Origin: a virus
Reading direction: 5' to 3' (one strand)
Length of the DNA stretch: 64,000 nt
IMG/VR virus record: IMGVR_UViG_3300036770_005504
Location: 1 to 64,000 of that record
In this document: in pieces, positions 45,717 to 57,900 of the stretch
How the letters are laid out: the number at the start of each line of letters is the position of its first letter
How positions within the stretch are numbered: the stretch's first letter is position 1
Made by a program: the position numbers and the translations under genes
The notes under the pieces: generated by a model
Databases searched by the model: none
What the model was told of the DNA's origin: nothing
What the model saw: the letters and a program-made list of their open reading frames with translations, nothing else

Positions 45717-48389
45717 TTATTCTTCAAGTTCAAAAAACATATTAAACGTGTTGGTAGTATTGGTACTATCTTTTAAATTCCAATTCAGCACACCTAACAG
45801 ATTTTCGATCTTTTGATCCACAATGGTAGTTTCCATTTCCGAATCATCAAATGGTAGTTCTTTGAACCATTCGGGCAATCGAGTTTCGTCGGTGGGATAA
45901 CCAACACTGGTCAATCCCAATGGATTGGGTCGCAATTTACAGACGATGGTCTTCATACCATCGACAATTTGCATACTATAATTATCGCTATGCATACGTC
46001 TTAGATTATTCCAATTCATAGCAGCACGAACATGTCCGGGCATATTGGCTCTACCCAGTTGTTGTTCCTTTTGCGCATAGTTAGTAAGATTGTTGACTCG
46101 TTTGGGTGTGCCTTTTTCCCATGATGGCCTTTGAGCAAATTTTGTTTTGAAATTTTTAATTTCATCAACAATAACAGAACGATCAATACCAGTCAACACA
46201 GCTTTTAAAATTTCATTGAGAAATTCCTGAACCACCTTGGGTGTGTCAGATCGTTTAAGATCAAGACCCATGGCTTTGATTTTTCCTGGTTGCTGATCTT
46301 GATCGTAACGACGGCCTTCTTTGTCATAGTATAACAATGCATACCGTTTTTTAGTAATAAACAATCCTCGTTCGGCCACAATCTCTCGACCGCATTTAAT
46401 AACTGAGCCTCGGTCTGTAGAGCAATTAAATGCTTGACTCATAAAGCCTGAGAAACTGTCGTTGACAAGGTCAGCAATATTGTCATAGACATCGACTGCA
46501 ATATCTTTGTTCCATGCCATCTTACCAGATTCGATATCAGCTTGTAAGACCGGCCATGCAGAAAAATAACAAGAATCTGTGTCATTGTATATAATGCTAC
46601 GCCCGAGGTGATTTCGATCGTTGTCGATGATATAGTTTATCTCTTGAGTCATATGTTGTGTGATTGCCCTGCCGCATAAAGTAGTGCTTTGCCCAATTCG
46701 TTTGTCAAAGAATCTACAGCCAGGATTCAAAATTGCACCGTACAGGCTGTTAAGATTAATTTTTTTAACCAACTGCCTTTTATCCCAGTATTCTTCGTCG
46801 GTTTTGTTTTCTTCTTTGATCGATTCTTTGAGTTTGGCCTGCAAATCTTTTCTTTCAGAATACCATCTTTTCAGTAGTCCAGGAATAATACCTTCTCGTT
46901 GACTGGTAAAGATTGTACCATTGGCACTCAACATCCAGGGATTATTTCCCTGAAAAATTATGTTGTAAATTTCAGCGGCTGAATGCTGTGTTTGTTCTCC
47001 GTTCTCCCAGTCTATGGTTATAATTTGATCAACACGTCTTTCCAATACTGCTGAGTATTCCAAACAGGCGAATAATCCTTCCCAAGCTTCAGCAAAACTA
47101 CGTCCTCGATCGATTCGTTCTTTGATATATGATTGGGTCATATCTTGTCTTAACTGACCCACAATCGTTTCCGGGCCCATATTTAATGCTCTAATAGTGG
47201 ACGGGTATAGACTATTAATATCAACACTGCCGACGTATTCGTGTATACCTTTTTTTGGATAGGCAACATAAGCACCAGCAGCTTGTAGATCTTCGTTGTC
47301 TCGGTTGTCTTTCCTATTAGGAACTACCATTCCTCGATCGTGTGCTTCATTGATAATAGCTTGCTCAGTGACTGCTACTGCGCCCATTGTAGTGGGCAAT
47401 AGCACAGTATTTTCATGTGCCAGTGTATTGGCTAGATCTAGGAATTTTAGTTTTTTATCAAGTCGAGCAATCAATGCCACATCTTCTCTATTGTATTGGA
47501 TGAATTTGCTGAATTCTCTATTATAGAGTTGATCTAGTGTGCCCTCATAGGCCACTTTACTGCCTACATTTTCGTATTCCCCAATGGCATCAAGACTATA
47601 GCTATGTCGTTCTTCGTAGGTATATTTTCTGTATAGTTGCATATAGTCCATATGCACACGACCTATTAGATCAAATGTAATATTCTCGGCACCGAATCTT
47701 TCAAAGGTTCTCTGTTTGGGCAGTTGATTCCAAAGACAATATCTACGTGTATCGTCACGACTGAGAACACGAGTAGTTCTCATCACCATATAGGGGATAT
47801 CAAAGCCTTCGCTGTTCCAGCCACTCAACACATCAGCATCATCGATCAGTTGCAAAAAAGTATTAAGCAATTCTTTTTCGTTTTCGCACACAAAGCAATT
47901 TTCGTATTCCTGTGCTATTGTCTGTGCCTGTTCATAATCAAGTGTGCGTGGTGGAATCACCAGTGTAATCAGTTGGTCTAACCAATCAAGATAAAGACTG
48001 ACTGCAGTGATAGGGTTAAAGGGATCTTCGGGCCGGCTATATCCTTTCAAAGGATCAAAATCTACCTCGATGTCAAAAAACACAGTATGTAGTTTGGGTG
48101 GGTCTTGATTTTTAAAATTTTCTTCGAGACACCTCAATACTGGATTGATATCAGATTCGTAGATTTTTTTGCCAGAGTGGACACGTAATTCTCGACGAAA
48201 CTCTTTGGAATTTTTTGTTTGAAATCGACTGACTGGTGTATCAAAAATTGATCGATATTTGCCTCGAGGATCGTCATAATAGAATCGATACTCAGCTGGA
48301 TATTCCTGATAATAACGTTCACCTTCACGTCGACCCACAATGTGGATTCGGTCTTTGGTTCGATCATGTAATGCATCGATATATGACAC
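45717..48389 (-). CDS. Family B DNA polymerase
   Basis: Exonuclease motifs FDIEV, GWNSEGFD, YNREDV; polymerase motifs DINSLYP, KINLNSLYG, YNDTDS, KKRY. Confidence 0.96.
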   Translation of the reverse strand: MSYIDALHDRTKDRIHIVGRREGERYYQEYPAEYRFYYDDPRGKYRSIFDTPVSRFQTKNSKEFRRELRVHSGKKIYESDINPVLRCLEENFKNQDPPKLHTVFFDIEVDFDPLKGYSRPEDPFNPITAVSLYLDWLDQLITLVIPPRTLDYEQAQTIAQEYENCFVCENEKELLNTFLQLIDDADVLSGWNSEGFDIPYMVMRTTRVLSRDDTRRYCLWNQLPKQRTFERFGAENITFDLIGRVHMDYMQLYRKYTYEERHSYSLDAIGEYENVGSKVAYEGTLDQLYNREFSKFIQYNREDVALIARLDKKLKFLDLANTLAHENTVLLPTTMGAVAVTEQAIINEAHDRGMVVPNRKDNRDNEDLQAAGAYVAYPKKGIHEYVGSVDINSLYPSTIRALNMGPETIVGQLRQDMTQSYIKERIDRGRSFAEAWEGLFACLEYSAVLERRVDQIITIDWENGEQTQHSAAEIYNIIFQGNNPWMLSANGTIFTSQREGIIPGLLKRWYSERKDLQAKLKESIKEENKTDEEYWDKRQLVKKINLNSLYGAILNPGCRFFDKRIGQSTTLCGRAITQHMTQEINYIIDNDRNHLGRSIIYNDTDSCYFSAWPVLQADIESGKMAWNKDIAVDVYDNIADLVNDSFSGFMSQAFNCSTDRGSVIKCGREIVAERGLFITKKRYALLYYDKEGRRYDQDQQPGKIKAMGLDLKRSDTPKVVQEFLNEILKAVLTGIDRSVIVDEIKNFKTKFAQRPSWEKGTPKRVNNLTNYAQKEQQLGRANMPGHVRAAMNWNNLRRMHSDNYSMQIVDGMKTIVCKLRPNPLGLTSVGYPTDETRLPEWFKELPFDDSEMETTIVDQKIENLLGVLNWNLKDSTNTTNTFNMFFELEE

Positions 48390-49721: not shown

Positions 49722-50162
49722 TTATGCTCTTTCTACTTTGAGGAAACTCTGTAACATCCATCGATGTTTGCCCATGGCATCAATTCTTCCGGCCACAAAA
49801 TCAGCAACACCTTGTTGGTTTTCACTTTCGGCCGATGAAAAACATCGATTTAGTAGATCTATTAAAGTTTGGCAGTCATTTAATAATTCTTCTAACATTA
49901 ATCTAGCTCGAGGAATTTTAGTTTGTCCAGAAATTAAACTTAATTCACTGAATCTTTCAAAACTACCCGGAGTATATTCTCCCAAAATTCTGATATATTC
50001 AGCAGTGGGATCTATTGCATCATAGACTTCTTCATAAATTTTACCAAAAAATTTATGTAATTGACTGAAGTCTGGACCTTCTACATTCCAATGAAATAAT
50101 TGTGCCTTTATAACAAACGCATATTCAGTGGCTAATAAAACTTTGAGATCATCTGTTAACAC
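49722..50162 (-). CDS. dps: Dps/ferritin-like DNA protection protein
   Basis: FHWNVEGPDF.QLH.FF..IYEE, D..AE.IR.LG, KHRWML. Confidence 0.9.
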   Translation of the reverse strand: MLTDDLKVLLATEYAFVIKAQLFHWNVEGPDFSQLHKFFGKIYEEVYDAIDPTAEYIRILGEYTPGSFERFSELSLISGQTKIPRARLMLEELLNDCQTLIDLLNRCFSSAESENQQGVADFVAGRIDAMGKHRWMLQSFLKVERA

Positions 50163-50642: not shown

Positions 50643-51506
50643 TTATTTTATGGATTTCCATTTTTCAGCTAAACTATCAACAAACTCCGATACTTTGGTA
50701 AATCCACGCTCTCGCATATATTGAATAATTGTAGTAGCGTGTCGACGATCTGGCCCACTGTCGGGTTTACGAGCGTTGGACAAATCATTGGCCAACCCCT
50801 GTGCGGAATTCGATCTATCGTAAGTATACATCAAATTGTATCTTATACGATCAGCATCTTTGCTTAATTGTGTTTTGTCTTTGGCTTTTATTAGTTCGAT
50901 CCATGGTGTCATGTATCCACGGCGGCGACTGGGAACATACCCCCGAGCAGTGTCCTGACCGGGCAATGCACCACTGGTAGTTTTTCTAGTATCTAACATT
51001 CTCCAACTGTTTTTATCACGATAGAAATATGTGTCAATTCCCCTACGTTTAGCAGCAATTAGACACTGTCGAGCCCATGCTTTGATTTGATCGTCTGCAT
51101 CAGGGCTTACATAAATGTGTACCGCAGTTACTCCATCAATGGATATAGTAGGCTCGGCACTGAATACACGATCTTCAGCTTCATGAGCACGATGATGCTG
51201 TTGATGAGGAGACCTATTAAGCCAATAATCAACCGGTTGAGATTTATAGTGTCTGTTAAACCAATTTCCATCTAACACAAACATCACCGCAGAACTACCG
51301 ATAATGTCATGATATCCACCAGTGCGTGTGCGTGTGGTACTAAGAAAGTAATATTGGCCGCGCGGCATATACTGTTGTTCCACGCTGCCCATGCCACTGC
51401 TGAGTTCAAATTGCCCCGATATTAAAATTTTTCGAGCCGCAGAGATATTGGTATAATGATAAGCTACTCTGCTGAGACTTTCTGCAATAAATTCTACAGC
51501 TTTCAT
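50643..51506 (-). CDS. Putative internal virion protein, possible ADP-ribosyltransferase-like fold
   Basis: MKAVEFIAE tag; YHYT...FLSTTR...EAEDR. Confidence 0.55.
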   Translation of the reverse strand: MKAVEFIAESLSRVAYHYTNISAARKILISGQFELSSGMGSVEQQYMPRGQYYFLSTTRTRTGGYHDIIGSSAVMFVLDGNWFNRHYKSQPVDYWLNRSPHQQHHRAHEAEDRVFSAEPTISIDGVTAVHIYVSPDADDQIKAWARQCLIAAKRRGIDTYFYRDKNSWRMLDTRKTTSGALPGQDTARGYVPSRRRGYMTPWIELIKAKDKTQLSKDADRIRYNLMYTYDRSNSAQGLANDLSNARKPDSGPDRRHATTIIQYMRERGFTKVSEFVDSLAEKWKSIK

Positions 51507-51979
51507 AGTAGTCCTATTTTGCCTGGATACAGTGGTCCACGTTCTATTCGTTCACCACCATCATAGTATTTAAGCTCAATGGGCAAACTGTTCCAACCCA
51601 AGCGAGCAGCAGCCATTATGCGATGATTGCCTTCGTTGACCCAAGCTTCTCCATTATGGGCCACCATTATGAATGGCACATACTCCTCACCGGATTTGGT
51701 TAAAGGTAAACGACCTGTGTCCTTCATTATCTGCATAATAGCAATCAAATCGTCCTGTCGAACATTTCGTTGTTCATTACGCATACCAGGCAAACTTTTC
51801 AGTATATCAACCGGTACACGAACATCGCCACGAACCGAGGCTGTGGTAGCACCAAAGTAAGGTGCTCCCCACCGATCGCGACCTTTTTCTTTAGCATAAG
51901 CAATTTTGCTGTTTAACCAATCTTCGTTGGGAACATCAATATTGAGTTGTGCTTCAATGATGAATTCTCTGGCTTTCAT
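51503..51979 (-). CDS. ParB/Srx-like domain protein with N-terminal tag
   Basis: MKAREFIIE tag; PFIMV..WVNEGNHRIMAA. Confidence 0.7.
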   Translation of the reverse strand: MKAREFIIEAQLNIDVPNEDWLNSKIAYAKEKGRDRWGAPYFGATTASVRGDVRVPVDILKSLPGMRNEQRNVRQDDLIAIMQIMKDTGRLPLTKSGEEYVPFIMVAHNGEAWVNEGNHRIMAAARLGWNSLPIELKYYDGGERIERGPLYPGKIGLL

Positions 51980-52567
51980 TTAAGACCCCTGAGTTCTGAT
52001 GTTGACTTCGCTTATGAGTTGGAGACGATCTCGATTAAACCAAGCAGTGGATTCTACGTCCCACATGCTCATAAGTATGTTATTCAAACTACTGCCCCAA
52101 GTGCCGCTCAATCTAGCAGGGTATCTTATACCATCTACCAACTGACCTAATTTCGCCCAGGGATAATCATCTATAATACTATCTCCCTGTAACTTGTGCC
52201 CAAGAATCTGAGCTATTTTTCTTGCTGCTTGGTCACTACCGATATTTAATACTCGTGCTCCGGGTTTAACCTGATATAACTGTCCTTTGGGTGCCAACCA
52301 TTGAGCCATATTTTCTCGGCACCATTCAGCCCATTGACTGGTATACGAATCTTTGCCGGTGGGTATGGCTGTACTGGTCCATATACTTGCTCGTGGTTTG
52401 ACACTTTCCTTGACATATTGTGAATTACGAGGAATGTAGAGTTGATATTTCAAACTTCGACTGGCGGCCATCTTGTTGCCATTGTCTTGTGCTTGAGCTA
52501 TTAGAGCTTCAATGGCAGGAGTAATTTCCATATTGCTGTTTTCGAATGTGAATTCACTGGATCTCAT
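51980..52567 (-). CDS. Hypothetical protein with N-terminal tag
   Basis: Start MRSSEFTFE overlaps the upstream stop. Confidence 0.65.
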   Translation of the reverse strand: MRSSEFTFENSNMEITPAIEALIAQAQDNGNKMAASRSLKYQLYIPRNSQYVKESVKPRASIWTSTAIPTGKDSYTSQWAEWCRENMAQWLAPKGQLYQVKPGARVLNIGSDQAARKIAQILGHKLQGDSIIDDYPWAKLGQLVDGIRYPARLSGTWGSSLNNILMSMWDVESTAWFNRDRLQLISEVNIRTQGS

Positions 52568-54909
52568 TTTTTCTTGTTCCTTCCTCGACGCATATTTAGT
52601 TGCCACTGAGCCATTCGTCGTCGTTCTCCATTACTGGATTTAGCTATTTTTTCTAATTGTCCCAATGTGGCTTTTTTTGGTATACCTACTCTACGACTCA
52701 GTCCTTTGCGGCCTGGGTTTCGACCGTCAGCAAAGTTTTCCTCCACATCTTGCTTTCCGGATATTTTTTTAAGAGTTTGGTGTGCTCGATCAGCTACAAA
52801 AGTTCCTTTTTCTTCATCATTGCCGCGATAAAGATACTTGGCAGTGCCACGATTATCAAGCCAAGGTCCAACTATTTCATATGTTCTTCCAGTTTTAGCA
52901 CTGTACACTATATCTCCAGGTTCCCACAGCCATGTATCTGGATGTTGAGCCTTTAGTATAGCCATATTGGCTTGCATCTGTGATACATGGCCACGAACAG
53001 CATTACCTAAACTTTGATGAAACCCTTTAAGTTTTTTGCTGTCATCGTCGCCCATGCTTTCTGTCACATTTTCATTGAAGGAGGCATTAAGCCATGGATC
53101 TGTTATTACCAATGTTTTACCGCGTAGCATGATATTAAAATCATCGTCGGACTTTATAAAGTCATTTTCAAAACCCAGTGCTCGGCCACGTTGGGCTACC
53201 GACTTTAGTGTTTTATAAAATAGTTCATAGCCCGGATATCGTTGTTCCAATGGTGTATTATTTTCTACGGAATTGATCATGTCAAATAGCATATCATCAT
53301 ATTCGCTGGGTGCTGGAATATCTAACAATCGTTCTTGGGCAATCTGAACGAATCTTTCGCCGTCAATATAGAAATCAGCGTAATCCTGTCCTTGTATTTC
53401 ACCAAATTTTGGAAGATGTGGGTTTTTCTGATTGGCCTGACAGTATTTGTAAAATTCTAAGAAAGGGATTTCTGCAGAACGCACAGTTTTTTCATCTTGG
53501 GGGATTAATATTTTTATAATATTGCCTTGTTGTTTTGCGTAAACTTGAGCGTCTCTACCACCCCCCAGCCGTTGGTAACCCATTTTTTTCATATGGGCAT
53601 TTATAAGTTTTAAATGGCGTTGATAGTCGATGTCTTCCACCACACCTTGTTTGCCAATTTCTTCTATATCTCTGTCGGGCACAATTCGTGATGGAATAGA
53701 TTTTAGGTCTAATAATTTGTAAGCCCAAAATCTGTGATGCCCATCTAATACTTGATAACCATCTTTGTATTTACGAACTAATATAGGAGGAAGTCGATCG
53801 CCTTTTTTCAAACCTGCAACAATTTTTTTAACATTAGCTCGGCTTTTAGGTTGACTCATTTTACTGTCTGGTTCAAACCCCACAAGTTTATTGACCGGAA
53901 TGTTGATAACTGGTAATCTATCAAACCCGGTGTCATCTACCTCAGCACCAAAATAGTCAGGTTCTGTATAGAGTTTTATCTTGCCTTCCGCCACATTTTG
54001 CCGAGCATTTTCTTCTATTTCTATGTTCGGTAAATGAGTATCAAATTTCAATGACAGTGCAGTTCGAAATTTATCGTATTCACCGATTGATAAAAATGTA
54101 AACGTATTGAAAATTGATAAATCTCTCATGGTCTTAGATGGATAAGTTCGTTTGCCCAATTTGGTTTTAAATGTCAATCCATCATTGCTTTTTGCTACAA
54201 ATACTGCAATTGATGGTGCATCAAGCGGCATTATTTTGTTACCTACTAGAGATAATGGAACTACAATATATTTTTTACCTTTGGTCAATTGCGACGACAT
54301 GTTAAATAGAGATACAAAATACTCTTTCTTGTCAATGTCAACTGATTCAGTTAAACTACCTTTTGTATAAAATTCCTCAAAAATGGACATCTTATCTTCC
54401 ATGCTCAGGCCTTCGTCTAACTCTGACCAGACGATGCCTTCCGCTACATCCTTTTTTATTTTTTTGAAAATGTAGTGTTGATGATAAGCATCATCTTTTG
54501 TGCTAAGTGCATACCCCAAGCCAGCAGCATATTTTTTTGCTAGAGCTGTATATAACTTTTGACGGCTACCTGTTTCGTCCTCATGCTTAATTGCGGAAAA
54601 TCTAATTTCATTAGGCTGTTGATTGTTGATAAATTGCTGTATGGCCGATAAAACGGTTGCAAAGATTCGTTGTTGATCCCCTTGTCCGGTTTTTTTAATA
54701 GTGCCGCCACGATAAAAATCCACATCCCAATCATTATAAAGCGGACTTTCCTTATTAAAATTAATTTCTAGATTTGTGCCATCTGGCAGAGCAGCCCAGG
54801 TCTTAAGTGGTTCACCAAAGTCTTCTTGATACCAGTCTATTAGGTTATAGGGTTGGTTGAGACTTTCATTAAGTTTACTTAAATCGATAATAAATTCTTT
54901 TGCTCTCAT
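52564..54909 (-). CDS. Modular polyprotein (6 modules, including ParB-like and kinase-like domains)
   Basis: MRAKEFII tag; PPILV..VLDGHHRFWA (ParB-like); LGGGRDAQVY..IIKI..NIML..VITDP (kinase-like); xVxE linkers. Confidence 0.75.
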   Translation of the reverse strand: MRAKEFIIDLSKLNESLNQPYNLIDWYQEDFGEPLKTWAALPDGTNLEINFNKESPLYNDWDVDFYRGGTIKKTGQGDQQRIFATVLSAIQQFINNQQPNEIRFSAIKHEDETGSRQKLYTALAKKYAAGLGYALSTKDDAYHQHYIFKKIKKDVAEGIVWSELDEGLSMEDKMSIFEEFYTKGSLTESVDIDKKEYFVSLFNMSSQLTKGKKYIVVPLSLVGNKIMPLDAPSIAVFVAKSNDGLTFKTKLGKRTYPSKTMRDLSIFNTFTFLSIGEYDKFRTALSLKFDTHLPNIEIEENARQNVAEGKIKLYTEPDYFGAEVDDTGFDRLPVINIPVNKLVGFEPDSKMSQPKSRANVKKIVAGLKKGDRLPPILVRKYKDGYQVLDGHHRFWAYKLLDLKSIPSRIVPDRDIEEIGKQGVVEDIDYQRHLKLINAHMKKMGYQRLGGGRDAQVYAKQQGNIIKILIPQDEKTVRSAEIPFLEFYKYCQANQKNPHLPKFGEIQGQDYADFYIDGERFVQIAQERLLDIPAPSEYDDMLFDMINSVENNTPLEQRYPGYELFYKTLKSVAQRGRALGFENDFIKSDDDFNIMLRGKTLVITDPWLNASFNENVTESMGDDDSKKLKGFHQSLGNAVRGHVSQMQANMAILKAQHPDTWLWEPGDIVYSAKTGRTYEIVGPWLDNRGTAKYLYRGNDEEKGTFVADRAHQTLKKISGKQDVEENFADGRNPGRKGLSRRVGIPKKATLGQLEKIAKSSNGERRRMAQWQLNMRRGRNKKK

Positions 54910-54912
54910 TTT

Positions 54913-57900
54913 TTATCCTATGATCGGTAATACATCAATTTCTGACGAGTTACCAATGGTTAAGTTGCCCAGTCTTTGTTGATCCAATAGCCAACGTGTG
55001 GCGAATCTCACTGCATCTGCTTGAACATTGCCCACACCGCCGAATCTATGTACTTCTTCACCATCAATGGTAATTCGCCAGGATCCAGTAAATCCGCCCT
55101 GAGATCGTTGCTGTTGGAGATCCCGAGTGCTACCTGGAATAGGCTGGGACTGAGTAGTTGGCTCTGCTGGAATTTCACGTACTTCTGCATCTATTTCCAC
55201 GTCAGGATGTCGTTCGCGTCTCTGTGCTAAGAACTGTTCGGCGGCCTGTTGCGTAGGAAATCTACGCAACGGTATCTCTTGCCCTATTGGATATTCACCA
55301 GGCTGACGAGCAAAGCGTTGACTTGCCCTGACCCAAATACCCCAATTACCAGTGCTACCACTCTGTAGTATATCCAAAGATCTTGGAGGTATGAAACTGC
55401 TTCTGGGCTGTACAGGTACGAGTTCGTAAGTCCACGCATCTCCCATAGTTAAGCGGTCAAATTCAGTTTCAGCTTCGGCTGGGGTATTTCTGGTAAAGTA
55501 ATTTACAGGTCTGCCATCATGTTGGCGAACCACAGCCCAATTGGCATCGGGTTGAGTTTCAGGAGCAGTCAACTGTGGTCGTTGAGGTGTTTGGGTGGTC
55601 TGTGGTTGTGCTCTGCGTACATCATACAGGTTTCTATTAGGGCCCGAAAATATACTGTCAAAATACTGTAGTGCCTCTTCATCACTATTGGCATTGAAAG
55701 TGTCAATTACTTGATTTCTTTGAAGGTTAATGATTTCGTAAGTATTTCCAGTAGTCGAGCCAGGTAAAGGTTTTTTAGCAGTGCTGCGTTTCAACTGTGC
55801 TTGACGCAAGAAACTCTTTAGTGCCTGTTTGGGTAATTCACCTGAACTGTATTTAACAAAATAGTCAATGGGGTCATCCTCAGACTTTGGAGCCAAAAGT
55901 TTACGAAGTTTGCTGAGGTATTCTTTACGGTACTTATCGGGATCCATGGCAGCATCTAAGGCCACAATGAATCTCATCAAAGTAGATACTAATTTTTTGG
56001 GATCTTCATCTAACCAGTCCCCTCCAGGGCTACGAAATTCTATATATTTTCCCTGAGGATGAATGCTGGTATATTTGCCTACATCACTGCCCTGTATACT
56101 TCTGCTGGCGAATTTGTTCAATCCTGAACGCATTTGATCAAATAAACCTTGGACTTGATCCGGAGATAAATTTTTTGCTCTTGCTTGAATTTTACTTAGT
56201 GCGCTGGTTGCATATGTATTAGCACTGCGACCAAACTGATCTAGCACATATTGGTCTCCGACTAACAATGCTAGTTTTACGAAATCTAAATTTTTATCGT
56301 CATACCCGGGAATACTGACATTCATATGTAGACCCGTGCTGTTATTAGTGTAGGCACCGATTCGGTTAGCCCACTGACGAACTTTTTCTAAATCATCCAG
56401 CATTTCAGGAAAGGTCAGCGGTGGACTGACAAACTCCAGTCCCATGTCGTCGCTGTCATGAGGTCTTAAACTGCCATCGGGTTCTACCACATATTTGCCT
56501 GGCTCACGCCGAGCACTATGATAAGATGAACTGGCATTAATTGGTCGGCCAATGGCTTCACTGAAGTCATTTGCAATGGCATCAATGCTGGTACTAGATT
56601 CCGATTCTTCCGTGGTCCAGTAAGGCCAATGGATAGTATCGGAATATTCATCGTGCACATCACTCATATTTACTAGACCAGCTTCGCCCAACCATTCCTC
56701 TTCTAAATCTGGGTCTTCCAGAAAATCTTCTAGAGCCTGCTCTCGAATATTGTCTAATCTATCACCACCCTCTCTGATAATTAGATCGGCGGCTTCTTCG
56801 GCTTGTGTTCGTGTTAACCCGTCGAGCCTGTCGGGATCTAACCCCAATAACTCAGCAATATCCTCTACATCCATGTGATCTGTTACATAGTCATAGACAA
56901 AAGTTTCTTTGTTCGATTCCCACCGTGCGTCAAATGCTTCCGAGGTCCAATCACTGAAATCGCTTCTTAGCTGTATCTCCAAACTTCTGACAGCATTACG
57001 ACTATTATAGTCACGGTCATCGAAAAAATTCACAATGTCGGTGATGCTGCGAGTGCCCTCATTATAGTCCATGTCCATGACCATTTCGGGATAATCGACG
57101 CCGCCTGCAACATTGGGCACAATCATTTCAAATTCTATGCCCACACGAGCATCGATATCCTTGACTGCAGCAGCCAGACTGGTTGGATCCATACGGATTT
57201 CTAATAGGTCATCCTCGTTGATCAGAGTTGAATTACTAGAGAATTTATTTGAAATTTGTTTTAACTTATTTTCTAAATGGTCAATTGTGTCATACTCGGC
57301 ATTATAAAGAATTCCATAACCGCCGGCCTTGTTCCATTTTTCGATATTTGATGGTTTGTCATCTATTAAAACATTGGGTATTCCGTCACTGGTTGCATAT
57401 TTTTCTTTGTTACGAGTAAAAACTATATCGCTAGGCAAGGGAGATAAATTTGATAATAGCCACTGTTTTTTATTGTTGCTGCTGTTTTGTATATCGCCTC
57501 GCAACGGGCTGGAGCAAATCCCATAATGATTTCCACCATACTTTAATGCCAGATTGACCACTTGGTCACTGGTAGAAAATTTGTTTAATTTTCTAAAAAA
57601 GTCAGTACCTAAAATTTTGGGTATATTGGGATCGTTACGACTACTGATGTCTGGATCGACTCCAAATAAAGTTCGATATCGACCGGCAAAATCAGCCAAC
57701 ACACCATCCATATCTAGATAAATTTTAAGATTGGGTTTCTTTTGTTGACTTTCGTTGTGTTTTTTCTTTTTGCCTTGACAATGTGCTCGTTGGCTAAATC
57801 CTTTGGGGCGGTCACAATCGATAGATTTTTTATATTTGGTTGACCACTCTTCTTGCAGTTTTTTTGCCAACAATAGTGCAGGTCTACCTTGTGTATCAGT

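Follow-up and report, generated by a model that had tools for sequence, protein, structure and literature searches.

Introduction

In bacteriophage T4, the first ten residues of the internal protein IPIII form a capsid targeting sequence that is sufficient for packaging, and residues 8 and 10 control processing; Asp at residue 10 blocks processing and leaves targeting unaffected (PMC9026906, PMC5694885). Both IPII and IPIII start with MKTYQEFIAE (T4 record AF158101). The T4 prohead protease gp21 cuts after Glu, as at ITE-6 and LTE-619 in Alt and at LIE-9 in gp21 (PMC9026906, PMC5694885), and the T4 record gives gp23 as cleaved by gp21. Here we describe a protein of 781 residues encoded in 64,000 nucleotides of viral DNA (positions 1 to 64,000 of IMG/VR virus record IMGVR_UViG_3300036770_005504; hereafter, the window), the first part of a 73,044-bp contig with a guanine-plus-cytosine (GC) content of 37.8%. 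The protein is a chain of modules joined by five copies of a six-residue linker, and it very probably represents a modular family that is joined by this linker and shuffled at it. With distinctly less assurance, we also consider it probable that such proteins are packaged, protease-processed effector polyproteins of large, uncultivated T4-like phages, and that their linker also serves as an in-frame site of recombination.

In the polyvalent proteins of phages and conjugative elements, as presented by Iyer et al. (2017, PMC5512222), a single polypeptide unites numerous unrelated domains of conflict type and is presumed to enter the host with the DNA; its processing is ascribed there to a metallopeptidase domain embedded in the chain. 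In plastic regions of their genomes, T4-type phages have short conserved repeats known as PeSL cassettes, and recombination between copies inserts, deletes or replaces units (Arbiol et al. 2010, PMC2839356). Shuffling has also been tied to conserved motifs of tail-fibre adhesins, including the glycine-rich motifs of gp38 (Trojet et al. 2011, PMC3157838). In the giant phages phiKZ, 201phi2-1 and SPN3US, a gp21-related protease makes many cuts after Glu within a short motif, sometimes several per protein (PMC9026906, PMC5694885).

Linkers and module anatomy

The polyprotein gene contains five 18-mers in its reading frame, which encode KDVAEG, QNVAEG, QGVVED, ENVTES and QDVEEN (Table 1). Their positions and peptides are exactly those given in an initial annotation, which had been made from the letters of the window alone. 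The protein has five V-x-E tripeptides, compared with a mean of 2.3 after shuffling, and all five are linkers; V-x-E thus occurs nowhere inside the modules against about 2.3 expected, numbers too small to judge avoidance. A six-residue motif set after the fact, [QKE][DNG]V.E[GDSN], was absent from 19,494 of 20,000 shuffled proteins and occurred once in 504 and twice in two (mean 0.025). Across long open frames of the entire 73-kb contig, a looser motif occurs at seven places, five of them in the polyprotein.

Structure prediction places the linkers between domains. An AlphaFold2 model built on an alignment of 91 family members had a mean predicted local distance difference test (pLDDT) score of 74 and a predicted template modelling score of 0.35, and it comprised five confident domains and a helical C-terminal hairpin. 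We note that a low value of the latter score is as expected of a beads-on-a-string chain. The stretches with pLDDT below 50 include all five linkers (Table 1), which in the model stand in coil at the borders of the predicted domains, as the initial annotation had proposed.

The predicted modules are diverse, and only some of them resemble known families. In a VIA structure search, module 1 (model range 21-153) matched an RNase E DNase-I-like domain (Z 10.0) and GNATs (Z 8.1-8.7), and its Pfam match to DUF6934 was weak and under the cut-off (E 5e-4). Homologues cover residues 4-148 of 148 of this module and carry it at an N-terminal or internal position in other proteins. Homologues of module 2 span residues 152-310 in many family representatives. 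Module 3 (model range 325-420) matched a ParB/sulfiredoxin fold (VIA Z 11.4, root-mean-square deviation 2.5 over 80 residues, matched range 333-418) and ParB_N in Pfam (E 2.9e-5, just under the curated cut-off), which bears out its earlier label of ParB-like. The kinase-like label of module 4 likewise held, as its ESM Atlas structure has a template modelling score of 0.74 to a Phage_T7_kinase cluster and about 0.6 to APH/Pkinase, and a comparison by features gave Kinase-PolyVal (0.93). Pfam searches of single modules at E ≤5 returned no match for modules 2, 4 and 5, and for the tail only a weak one to PF0610-like_N (E 0.0043, under the cut-off). Foldseek and VIA searches with the whole model were dominated by modules 1 and 3 and barely probed modules 2, 4, 5 and the tail.

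The protein family

Relatives of the 781-residue protein are numerous. A search of 1.84 billion representative proteins (clusters at 50% identity) returned 2,901 representatives at E ≤1e-3 and 1,423 at E ≤1e-10. The best-matching stretches correspond to the modules (residues 302-425, 12-158, 152-310, 420-618, 612-724 and 722-781). Linkers of the type [QKE][GDNPS]V.E[GNDSA] were present in 107 of the best 150 representatives, with a maximum of ten per protein, and 62 of these 150 start with M[KR]xx[ED][FIL]. The commonest linker among them was QGVAEG (73 copies), and the family consensus for this peptide is CAAGGTGTGGCGGAAGGC. The initial annotation had only five diverged copies to work from; the consensus and the size of the family emerged from the related sequences. 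The phage collection held no cultured relative (tblastn with the whole protein at E ≤1e-5; megablast with 20 kb).

Cargo domains varied widely across the family. A Pfam census of 91 members found ParB_N in 61, DUF6934 in 12, DUF6321 in four, nucleotidyltransferases and GNAT in three each, NUDIX in two, and SLT, sigma-70 region 4, deaminase, GGACT and ASCH in one each. The ParB-like module was therefore the most widespread, although its count is inflated because the 91 members were ranked by likeness to the 781-residue query.

The basic C-terminal tail (57 residues) was the most conserved element of all. Relatives of the protein occur on 57 viral contigs, and most of them match it over no more than the last 60 residues (78-91% identity), starting at residues 719-724, that is, at linker 5. 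Across 40 distinct DNAs, taken from contigs of 35-54% GC, the tail peptide NFADG...AQWQLNMRRGK hardly varies. Structural comparison places it at the end of viral proteins that carry NT5C, deaminase, NUDIX, DUF6321, Pterin_4a or ART-PolyVal domains, and in a comparison by features the closest clusters consist of proteins 58-68 residues long, in which the tail stands alone. It may bind DNA as an internal peptide or serve as a second tag for loading into the capsid.

Module shuffling at linkers

Comparison of related proteins showed that modules are gained, lost and reordered at linkers throughout the family. One relative (L001) matches residues 1-157 and 420-646. A second (L002) carries module 1 internally, at residues 362-500, with modules 4-6 directly after it, a third (L009) consists of module 1 and the tail, and a fourth (L010) has module 1 at residues 143-293. 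When the protein was compared by BLASTP with the 150 representative homologues, 225 of 370 internal alignment ends lay within 8 residues of a linker Glu, where 41 would be expected if the ends were uniformly distributed.

The same pattern was present in DNA. In an all-against-all comparison of the window's contig and 180 related loci, breakpoints of DNA identity were about tenfold enriched on linkers. Among blocks of at least 120 bp and at least 80% identity, 195 of 680 ends fell within 9 nt of a linker centre (19 expected). For blocks of at least 200 bp, counted within 12 nt, the ends on linkers were 153 of 369 at 80% identity or more (14.0 expected), 53 of 94 at 90% or more (4.1 expected) and 15 of 27 at 95% or more (1.1 expected).

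Individual junctions support exchange at the linker itself. A block of 591 bp that runs from linker 3 to linker 4 (53648-53058) has 92.2% DNA identity to L001, which lacks module 5. On its left side, the single linker of L001 at this place, GAAAGTGTGGCGGAAAAC, is flanked as linker 4 of the window is, and on its right side as linker 5 is, so the junction of the module 5 insertion or deletion lies inside one hybrid linker. Module 5 itself recurs at 83% DNA identity in another locus (L106), within a frame of 1570 codons and among other neighbours. These comparisons uphold the earlier proposal that the linker is a recombination joint, insofar as modules come and go at it.

Metagenomic contigs from elsewhere break at the same places. 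Logan contigs of three other studies, labelled as freshwater or lake metagenomes, end or change partner at 52741-52755, 53049-53089, 53649, 54001 and 54458, in each case no more than a few bases from a linker. In run X3, one contig skips module 5, joining 53089 to 52741, and has a replacement linker that we translated by hand as EGVTEN; in run X8, module 5 stands next to PGVAES (also translated by hand), and the sequence before it is unlike that of the window. Contig ends alone are weak evidence, because assembly graphs tend to break at repeats, and the joints and partner changes are stronger; stretches that lack cover in runs X2, X3 and X8 are uninformative. A Logan contig of run X1 matches 52300-54830 with zero differences, and we regard X1 as the probable source sample rather than an independent one.

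Putative targeting signal and candidate cleavage sites

The polyprotein and the next three genes downstream start with similar peptides (Table 1), which suggests that these four genes form an array, each with a T4-like targeting signal. In related loci, the signature M[RK]AxEF[IVL]xE starts 66 distinct open reading frames, with Glu at position 9 in 47 of them. These N-termini resemble a capsid targeting peptide of about ten residues such as MKTYQEFIAE, and we note that the resemblance is one of short peptides, not the outcome of a statistical homology test.

Conservation at the junctions is consistent with cutting behind Glu. In all 44 cases examined, the residue before the tail is Glu, and two places ahead of this Glu stands V, M, I, L or F in 38. 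In L002, where the DNA consensus of the linker is gone, the homologous junctions still read IQE-A, LTE-N and LEE-N. A protein of 65 residues (L045) consists of the signal fused straight to the tail (MRAEEFISE-NFADG), and the x-E of the signal therefore appears to stand in for a linker.

Related phages also have a candidate enzyme and a candidate site in their capsid protein. Peptidase_S77, the family of T4 gp21, was found in six of ten related large records and in four of the five that are at least 90% complete. In three of them (G001, G002 and G004), the genes follow the T4 order of acidic core protein, protease, scaffold and Gp23-type capsid protein. In the relatives' Gp23-type protein, YLRE-N aligns with FLTE(65)-A of T4 gp23, whose Glu65 we take to be the maturation site, and LLEG, LLEG and ILEN lie upstream. 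Together, these features make it plausible that the linker is a site for a T4-type prohead protease.

The same chain could instead stay whole. It would then be an uncleaved polyvalent protein, a single multidomain chain in which linkers serve only as spacers or recombination joints and hydrophobic-x-Glu is a by-product of conserved DNA. Iyer et al. (PMC5512222) describe multidomain polyvalent proteins, some of which are packaged without processing, such as the virion RNA polymerase of N4; the module families overlap that class (Kinase-PolyVal, ART-PolyVal, ParB), and position 9 of the polyprotein's signal is Asp, the residue that blocks processing of T4 IPIII, though not its targeting, when it stands at the cleavage position. 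A by-product of conserved DNA fits poorly with [VIL]-x-E being retained at junctions that lack the DNA consensus, and with Glu before the tail in every case despite varied codons and neighbours. The replacement of a linker by the x-E of the signal, and the resemblance of the linker to the predicted maturation site of the related capsid proteins, also speak for processing, and we consider an uncleaved chain unlikely.

Linker DNA conserved beyond the peptide

Linker codons were far more uniform than codon usage predicts. We compared 41 linkers of unique context, from 20 loci retrieved by protein patterns without the linker, with a background of the same genes. The consensus codon was used for Gln in 26 of 27 cases (CAA, background 70%), for Gly at position 2 in 23 of 25 (GGT, 41%), for Val in 27 of 41 (GTG, 25%), for Ala in 22 of 24 (GCG, 8%), for Glu in 39 of 41 (GAA, 81%) and for Gly at position 6 in 15 of 19 (GGC, 30%). 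Two other conserved peptides of the same proteins served as controls. Invariant residues of the tail use three to six codons each, mostly with a top-codon share of 0.3-0.55 (for Ala: GCT 13, GCA 10, GCG 10, GCC 6), and fixed codons occur only in the first three beside the linker (GAA AAC TTT). In the N-terminal signal, Ala codons were at background (GCA 28, GCT 18, GCC 16, GCG 4). Conservation of synonymous sites is thus specific to the linker, which makes it a clear natural case of selection or homogenisation on such sites with two internal control peptides.

Within the window, the initial annotation had read wobble conservation from its five copies, and part of that pattern exceeds codon usage. 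The final C (5/5, p ~9e-4) and GTG (4/5, p ~0.017) stand out, and both linker Ala codons are GCG, which makes up 4% of Ala codons on the contig; codon usage by itself accounts for T in the second codon and for GAA as the fifth. Family-wide, the linker as a whole exceeded its background, as given above. By hand count, the five linkers of the window differ from the consensus at 2, 2, 4, 4 and 6 positions. We also observed that four of the five have Asp or Asn at the second codon, where the family has Gly (this codon lies at 54448-54450, 53995-53997, 53644-53646, 53068-53070 and 52747-52749 in linkers 1 to 5). This could reflect AT-pressure in a genome of 38% GC or homogenisation among the linkers of one gene.

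The exact 18-mer CAAGGTGTGGCGGAAGGC was present in at least 120 viral stretches. In the collected loci, 171 of its 172 copies were in the frame that encodes QGVAEG, within open frames of at least 100 codons, and the peptides around them were of 155 different kinds. Recoded with commoner synonymous codons, two versions of the 18-mer were present in 20 and 18 stretches; most of these belong to unrelated proteins, and only five and none, respectively, lay in frames with another linker. Among prokaryote genomes, 596 billion bases contained the 18-mer in 56 stretches, nearly all of them single hits in high-GC genomes and a few on small contigs of metagenome-assembled genomes (MAGs); it is not a bacterial repeat. 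One contig of 8,950 bp (L268), in a MAG labelled uncultured Bacteroidetes, has three exact 18-mers within about 850 bp. It is probably a phage contig, and as a host lead it is faint at most and no basis for naming a host.

Uniform linker DNA might also have a cause at the RNA level, such as ribosome pausing, a weak two-tetrad G-quadruplex (GG-TGT-GG-C-GG-AA-GG) or a Shine-Dalgarno-like stretch. The linkers would then be protease sites only, with shuffling seen at them as only breaks between domains survive. Read from the sequence, the wobble Gs of GTG and GCG do create the four GG runs of the consensus, an 18-bp stretch is short for homologous exchange, and some gene calls start at a linker. 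The linkers of the window, in contrast, retain three GG runs at the most, and one of them lacks GG runs altogether, yet all five lie at module borders; conservation also extends to wobble bases that GG runs do not require (T of GGT, A of CAA and C of GGC). AAGG lies 1 nt from GTG, too near for a ribosome-binding site, and both the hybrid linker of L001 and the tenfold pile-up of high-identity block ends show exchange ending at linkers. We therefore regard a purely RNA-level cause as quite improbable.

Three narrower candidates were discarded. A 2A-like 'stop-go' peptide (DVEEN...NPG) is not kept in the family consensus GVAENFADG, internal translation from the linker GTG would have AAGG just 1 nt upstream, and the linker is not known to match any Chi-like hotspot.

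Genomic context

The polyprotein gene lies in a cluster of genes on one strand (Table 1), on a contig that CheckV estimates at 21% completeness. T4-type replication genes occur on the contig, including that of a family-B DNA polymerase. The N-terminal domain type of the 1436-residue upstream protein also starts a tail-ending protein of 1851 residues in L007, a record of 337 kb; the upstream protein contains no V-x-E linkers.

Table 1 Features of the polyprotein gene and its surroundings (positions in the window)
Feature	Position	Strand	Remarks
Polyprotein gene, 781 residues	52564-54909	-	Open frame, ATG start; stop codon 52564-52566
N-terminal signal MRAKEFIID	54883-54909	-	Resembles T4 capsid targeting sequence; position 9 is Asp
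Module 1, residues 10-152, alpha/beta	54454-54882	-	Predicted GNAT-like or RNase E DNase-I-like fold; pLDDT mostly 71-94
Linker 1, KDVAEG, AAGGATGTAGCGGAAGGC	54436-54453	-	pLDDT <50 at residues 154-159
Module 2, residues 159-303, predicted helices then beta-sheet domain	54001-54435	-	No known family
Linker 2, QNVAEG, CAAAATGTGGCGGAAGGC	53983-54000	-	2 mismatches to consensus (hand count); pLDDT <50 at 303-305
Module 3, residues 310-420, predicted ParB/sulfiredoxin fold	53650-53982	-	Pfam, PHROG ParB-like families, VIA
Linker 3, QGVVED, CAAGGTGTGGTGGAAGAC	53632-53649	-	2 mismatches to consensus (hand count); pLDDT <50 at 421-425; start of the 92% block shared with L001
Module 4, residues 427-612 (426-617 in the structure comparison), predicted protein-kinase-like (T7 gp0.7-type or Kinase-PolyVal-like)	53074-53631	-	ESM Atlas structure
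Linker 4, ENVTES, GAAAATGTGACAGAAAGC	53056-53073	-	Within low-pLDDT (<50) stretch 598-624; L001 block ends here
Module 5, residues 619-719, predicted long helix and small beta domain	52753-53055	-	No known family; missing from closest relative L001
Linker 5, QDVEEN, CAAGATGTGGAGGAAAAC	52735-52752	-	pLDDT <50 at 719-731; tail matches of 57 loci mostly begin at residues 719-724
Basic C-terminal tail FADGRNPGRKGLSRRVGIPKK...AQWQLNMRRGRNKKK, predicted helical hairpin	52567-52734	-	pLDDT 73-96; helices 749-758 and 761-780
Downstream gene, 195 residues, N-terminus MRSSEFTFE	51980-52567	-	ATG at 52567; phrog_8582, function-unknown family
Downstream gene, 158 residues, N-terminus MKAREFIIE	51503-51979	-	Weak ParB-like match
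Downstream gene, 287 residues, N-terminus MKAVEFIAE	50643-51506	-	Core EFIAE same as in T4 IPII/IPIII
Upstream multidomain gene, 1436 residues	54913-59223	-	NT5C-like, Amidoligase_2, weak metalloprotease-like match; phrog_36119 N-terminal domain
Ferritin/Dps-like gene	49722-50162	-	Pfam Ferritin, E 1.9e-21; directly downstream of the signal-bearing genes
Family-B DNA polymerase gene	45717-48389		phrog_262, E 2e-193
Open reading frame, 490 residues	42511-43983	-	PHROG homing/HNH endonuclease families (phrog_3339, E 4e-124), Mom-like segment; near DNA polymerase gene
AAA+ 'ATP-dependent protease' family protein, 744 residues	62243-64000 (to 64477 in contig)	-	phrog_4871, E 2.7e-213

Gene borders in the cluster resemble linkers in their placement. 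The 1436-residue and 781-residue open reading frames share a reading frame, with just TAA and one AAA codon between them (54907-54915, - strand), and the genes for 195 and 158 residues are likewise in frame, one TAA apart (51977-51982, - strand). Starts of signal-bearing genes thus follow single stops in frame and sit where linkers sit inside the polyprotein. We also observed gene calls of some family members that begin at a linker (MQGVAEA, MAEGKITL, VAEGKITL). In-frame borders and linker-start gene calls may hint at conversion between split and fused forms.

The placement of the cluster among replication genes, the weak metalloprotease match of its 1436-residue neighbour (phrog_87, E 5.7e-5) and the proposal of Iyer et al. 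that a metallopeptidase domain processes polyvalent proteins (PMC5512222) would suit an unpackaged, cytoplasmic polyprotein cut by that domain, by some other enzyme or by a host protease, with another role for the N-terminal motif; we hold this to be very improbable, as the ip genes of T4 likewise sit outside the head-gene block (T4 record), the N-terminal motif has the core EFIAE of the T4 targeting sequence, gp21-type proteases cut after Glu in hydrophobic-x-Glu (PMC9026906, PMC5694885), and the 781-residue protein has no match to peptidase families in Pfam or PHROG (with modules 2 and 5 barely probed by fold searches).

Proposed mechanism

Returning to a packaged and processed polyprotein, we propose the following course of events. 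The N-terminal signal, if related to the T4 capsid targeting sequence, would bring the chain into the prohead core, where the Peptidase_S77 prohead protease would cut behind the Glu of every hydrophobic-x-Glu linker. The freed products would be a GNAT-like domain, a domain of no known family, a ParB/sulfiredoxin-fold domain, a T7-type kinase-like domain, a second domain of no known family and a small basic helical peptide, and these would exit the capsid together with the DNA. Separately, the 18-bp linker DNA would act as an in-frame joint, at which modules are deleted, inserted or exchanged between genes and phages through crossovers in short identical stretches. Such crossovers would preserve the reading frame and restore the cleavage site, and repeated exchange, with preferential survival of consensus copies, would keep the linker DNA uniform. 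Packaging, cleavage, the identity of the acting protease and recombination as the cause of DNA conservation are all parts of the proposal that we infer.

Several observations weigh against this proposal. The 73-kb contig, a 21%-complete fragment, contains no head genes and no Peptidase_S77 protease. One related record with an exact 18-mer (G007, locus L094; 99% complete, 343 kb) has no Peptidase_S77 match, and a complete one with both the protease and a tail-bearing protein (G001, locus L007) has no 18-mer within two mismatches; either the three elements (linker, tail and protease) do not strictly occur together, or the protease there has diverged beyond detection. Eight [IL]-x-E tripeptides lie inside modules, which means that specificity must come from accessibility or from more than three residues, and Val at P3 differs from the classical Leu or Ile of T4 sites. 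The Asp of the polyprotein's signal belongs here as well. Regarding recombination, alignment ends would also land at linkers if exchange occurred anywhere between domains and selection removed the rest, the linker is short for homologous recombination, and its mismatches to the consensus suggest that the joint has partly decayed in the phage of the window. The T4 late promoter TATAAATA has three matches in the window compared with 6.1 expected, none of them at 50-60 kb, a count that is uninformative for distant T4-like phages.

A bolder version of the proposal is possible, and we put it forward tentatively. QGVAEG may be dual-coded across many uncultivated large T4-like phages (GC 35-54%), the peptide being a prohead-protease release site and the DNA, CAAGGTGTGGCGGAAGGC, a dedicated in-frame crossover site. 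Modules would be cut and pasted between polyproteins and phages and would arrive packaged and releasable, possibly helped by an enzyme or a DNA structure that targets the 18-mer; this would amount to phage-wide 'plug-and-play' exchange of injected effectors.

The proposal, if correct, would have wider consequences. The 2,901 representative clusters would form a library of packaged, injected host-takeover and anti-defence enzymes. The simple grammar of the family (signal, module, linker, module ... tail) would make such effectors recognisable from sequence alone in uncultivated phages. For engineering, a short element that is at once an in-frame recombination joint and a capsid cleavage site could serve to fill T4-type heads with several cargo proteins. 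The family also makes in-frame domain shuffling by phages testable.

Comparison with known systems

The family is most like the internal proteins of T4. Like IPI, IPII, IPIII and Alt, its members start with a short signal built around EF[IT]xE, and it shares with the T4 internal proteins very diverse cargo behind a conserved signal (PMC3012670, PMC9026906). A cut after Glu in hydrophobic-x-Glu, here predicted, and a T4-like background with an S77 protease in relatives are further likenesses. In contrast to the T4 internal proteins, which are single small proteins with one site, members of this family have up to ten cargo modules with repeated candidate sites between them and add a conserved basic C-terminal tail, and their signal (M-K/R-A-x-E-F...) is one residue shorter. 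Compared with these systems, the sites of the giant phages remove propeptides of single proteins and are not presented, in the passages of PMC9026906 and PMC5694885 that concern them, as a DNA-conserved separator of shuffled modules.

Polyvalent proteins resemble the family in content. With five folded domains and a tail, the 781-residue protein falls within the 2-15 unrelated effector domains per polypeptide of that class, and the two have ParB-like, Kinase-PolyVal, ART-PolyVal, nucleotidyltransferase, NUDIX, GNAT and SLT families in common. They differ in how the chain would be divided: Iyer et al. assign this task to an embedded metallopeptidase domain, and this family has a fixed six-residue separator of putative prohead-protease type that is conserved in DNA. 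The main text of PMC5512222 does not contain the word 'linker', and 'prohead protease' appears only in its reference list.

Shuffling at the linker is closest in kind to that at PeSLs. Recombination between copies is a common feature, evident here from the module 5 insertion or deletion with its hybrid linker and from breakpoint enrichment, and we regard this as a functional analogy, not as membership. PeSLs are intergenic cassettes of a promoter and a terminator that move whole genes (PMC2839356), whereas the linker, 18 bp of coding sequence, moves domains in frame and does not consist of an intergenic sigma-70-like promoter with a stem-loop terminator. The motifs of gp38 and T-even tail fibres form the structural core of a single domain in fixed order (PMC3157838), whereas the linker is an unstructured, protease-site-like separator of independent domains in free order. 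The description of the modules as an 'integron-like' array in the initial annotation was overstated. Read from its sequence, the 18-mer is not an inverted repeat and hence not like attC, and the 73-kb fragment (21% complete) has no match to Phage_integrase or Resolvase, which leaves 'integron-like' as an analogy only.

A full-text search, with supplements and most subscription journals outside its coverage, returned no phage paper with the linker or tail peptides, and no such linkers were described in the literature on capsid targeting sequences, prohead proteases and polyproteins or in overviews of jumbo phages. Compared with what has been described, internal proteins with capsid targeting sequences, polyvalent proteins and motif-mediated shuffling are known kinds, and the putatively dual-coded linker and the very large family built on it appear to be new.

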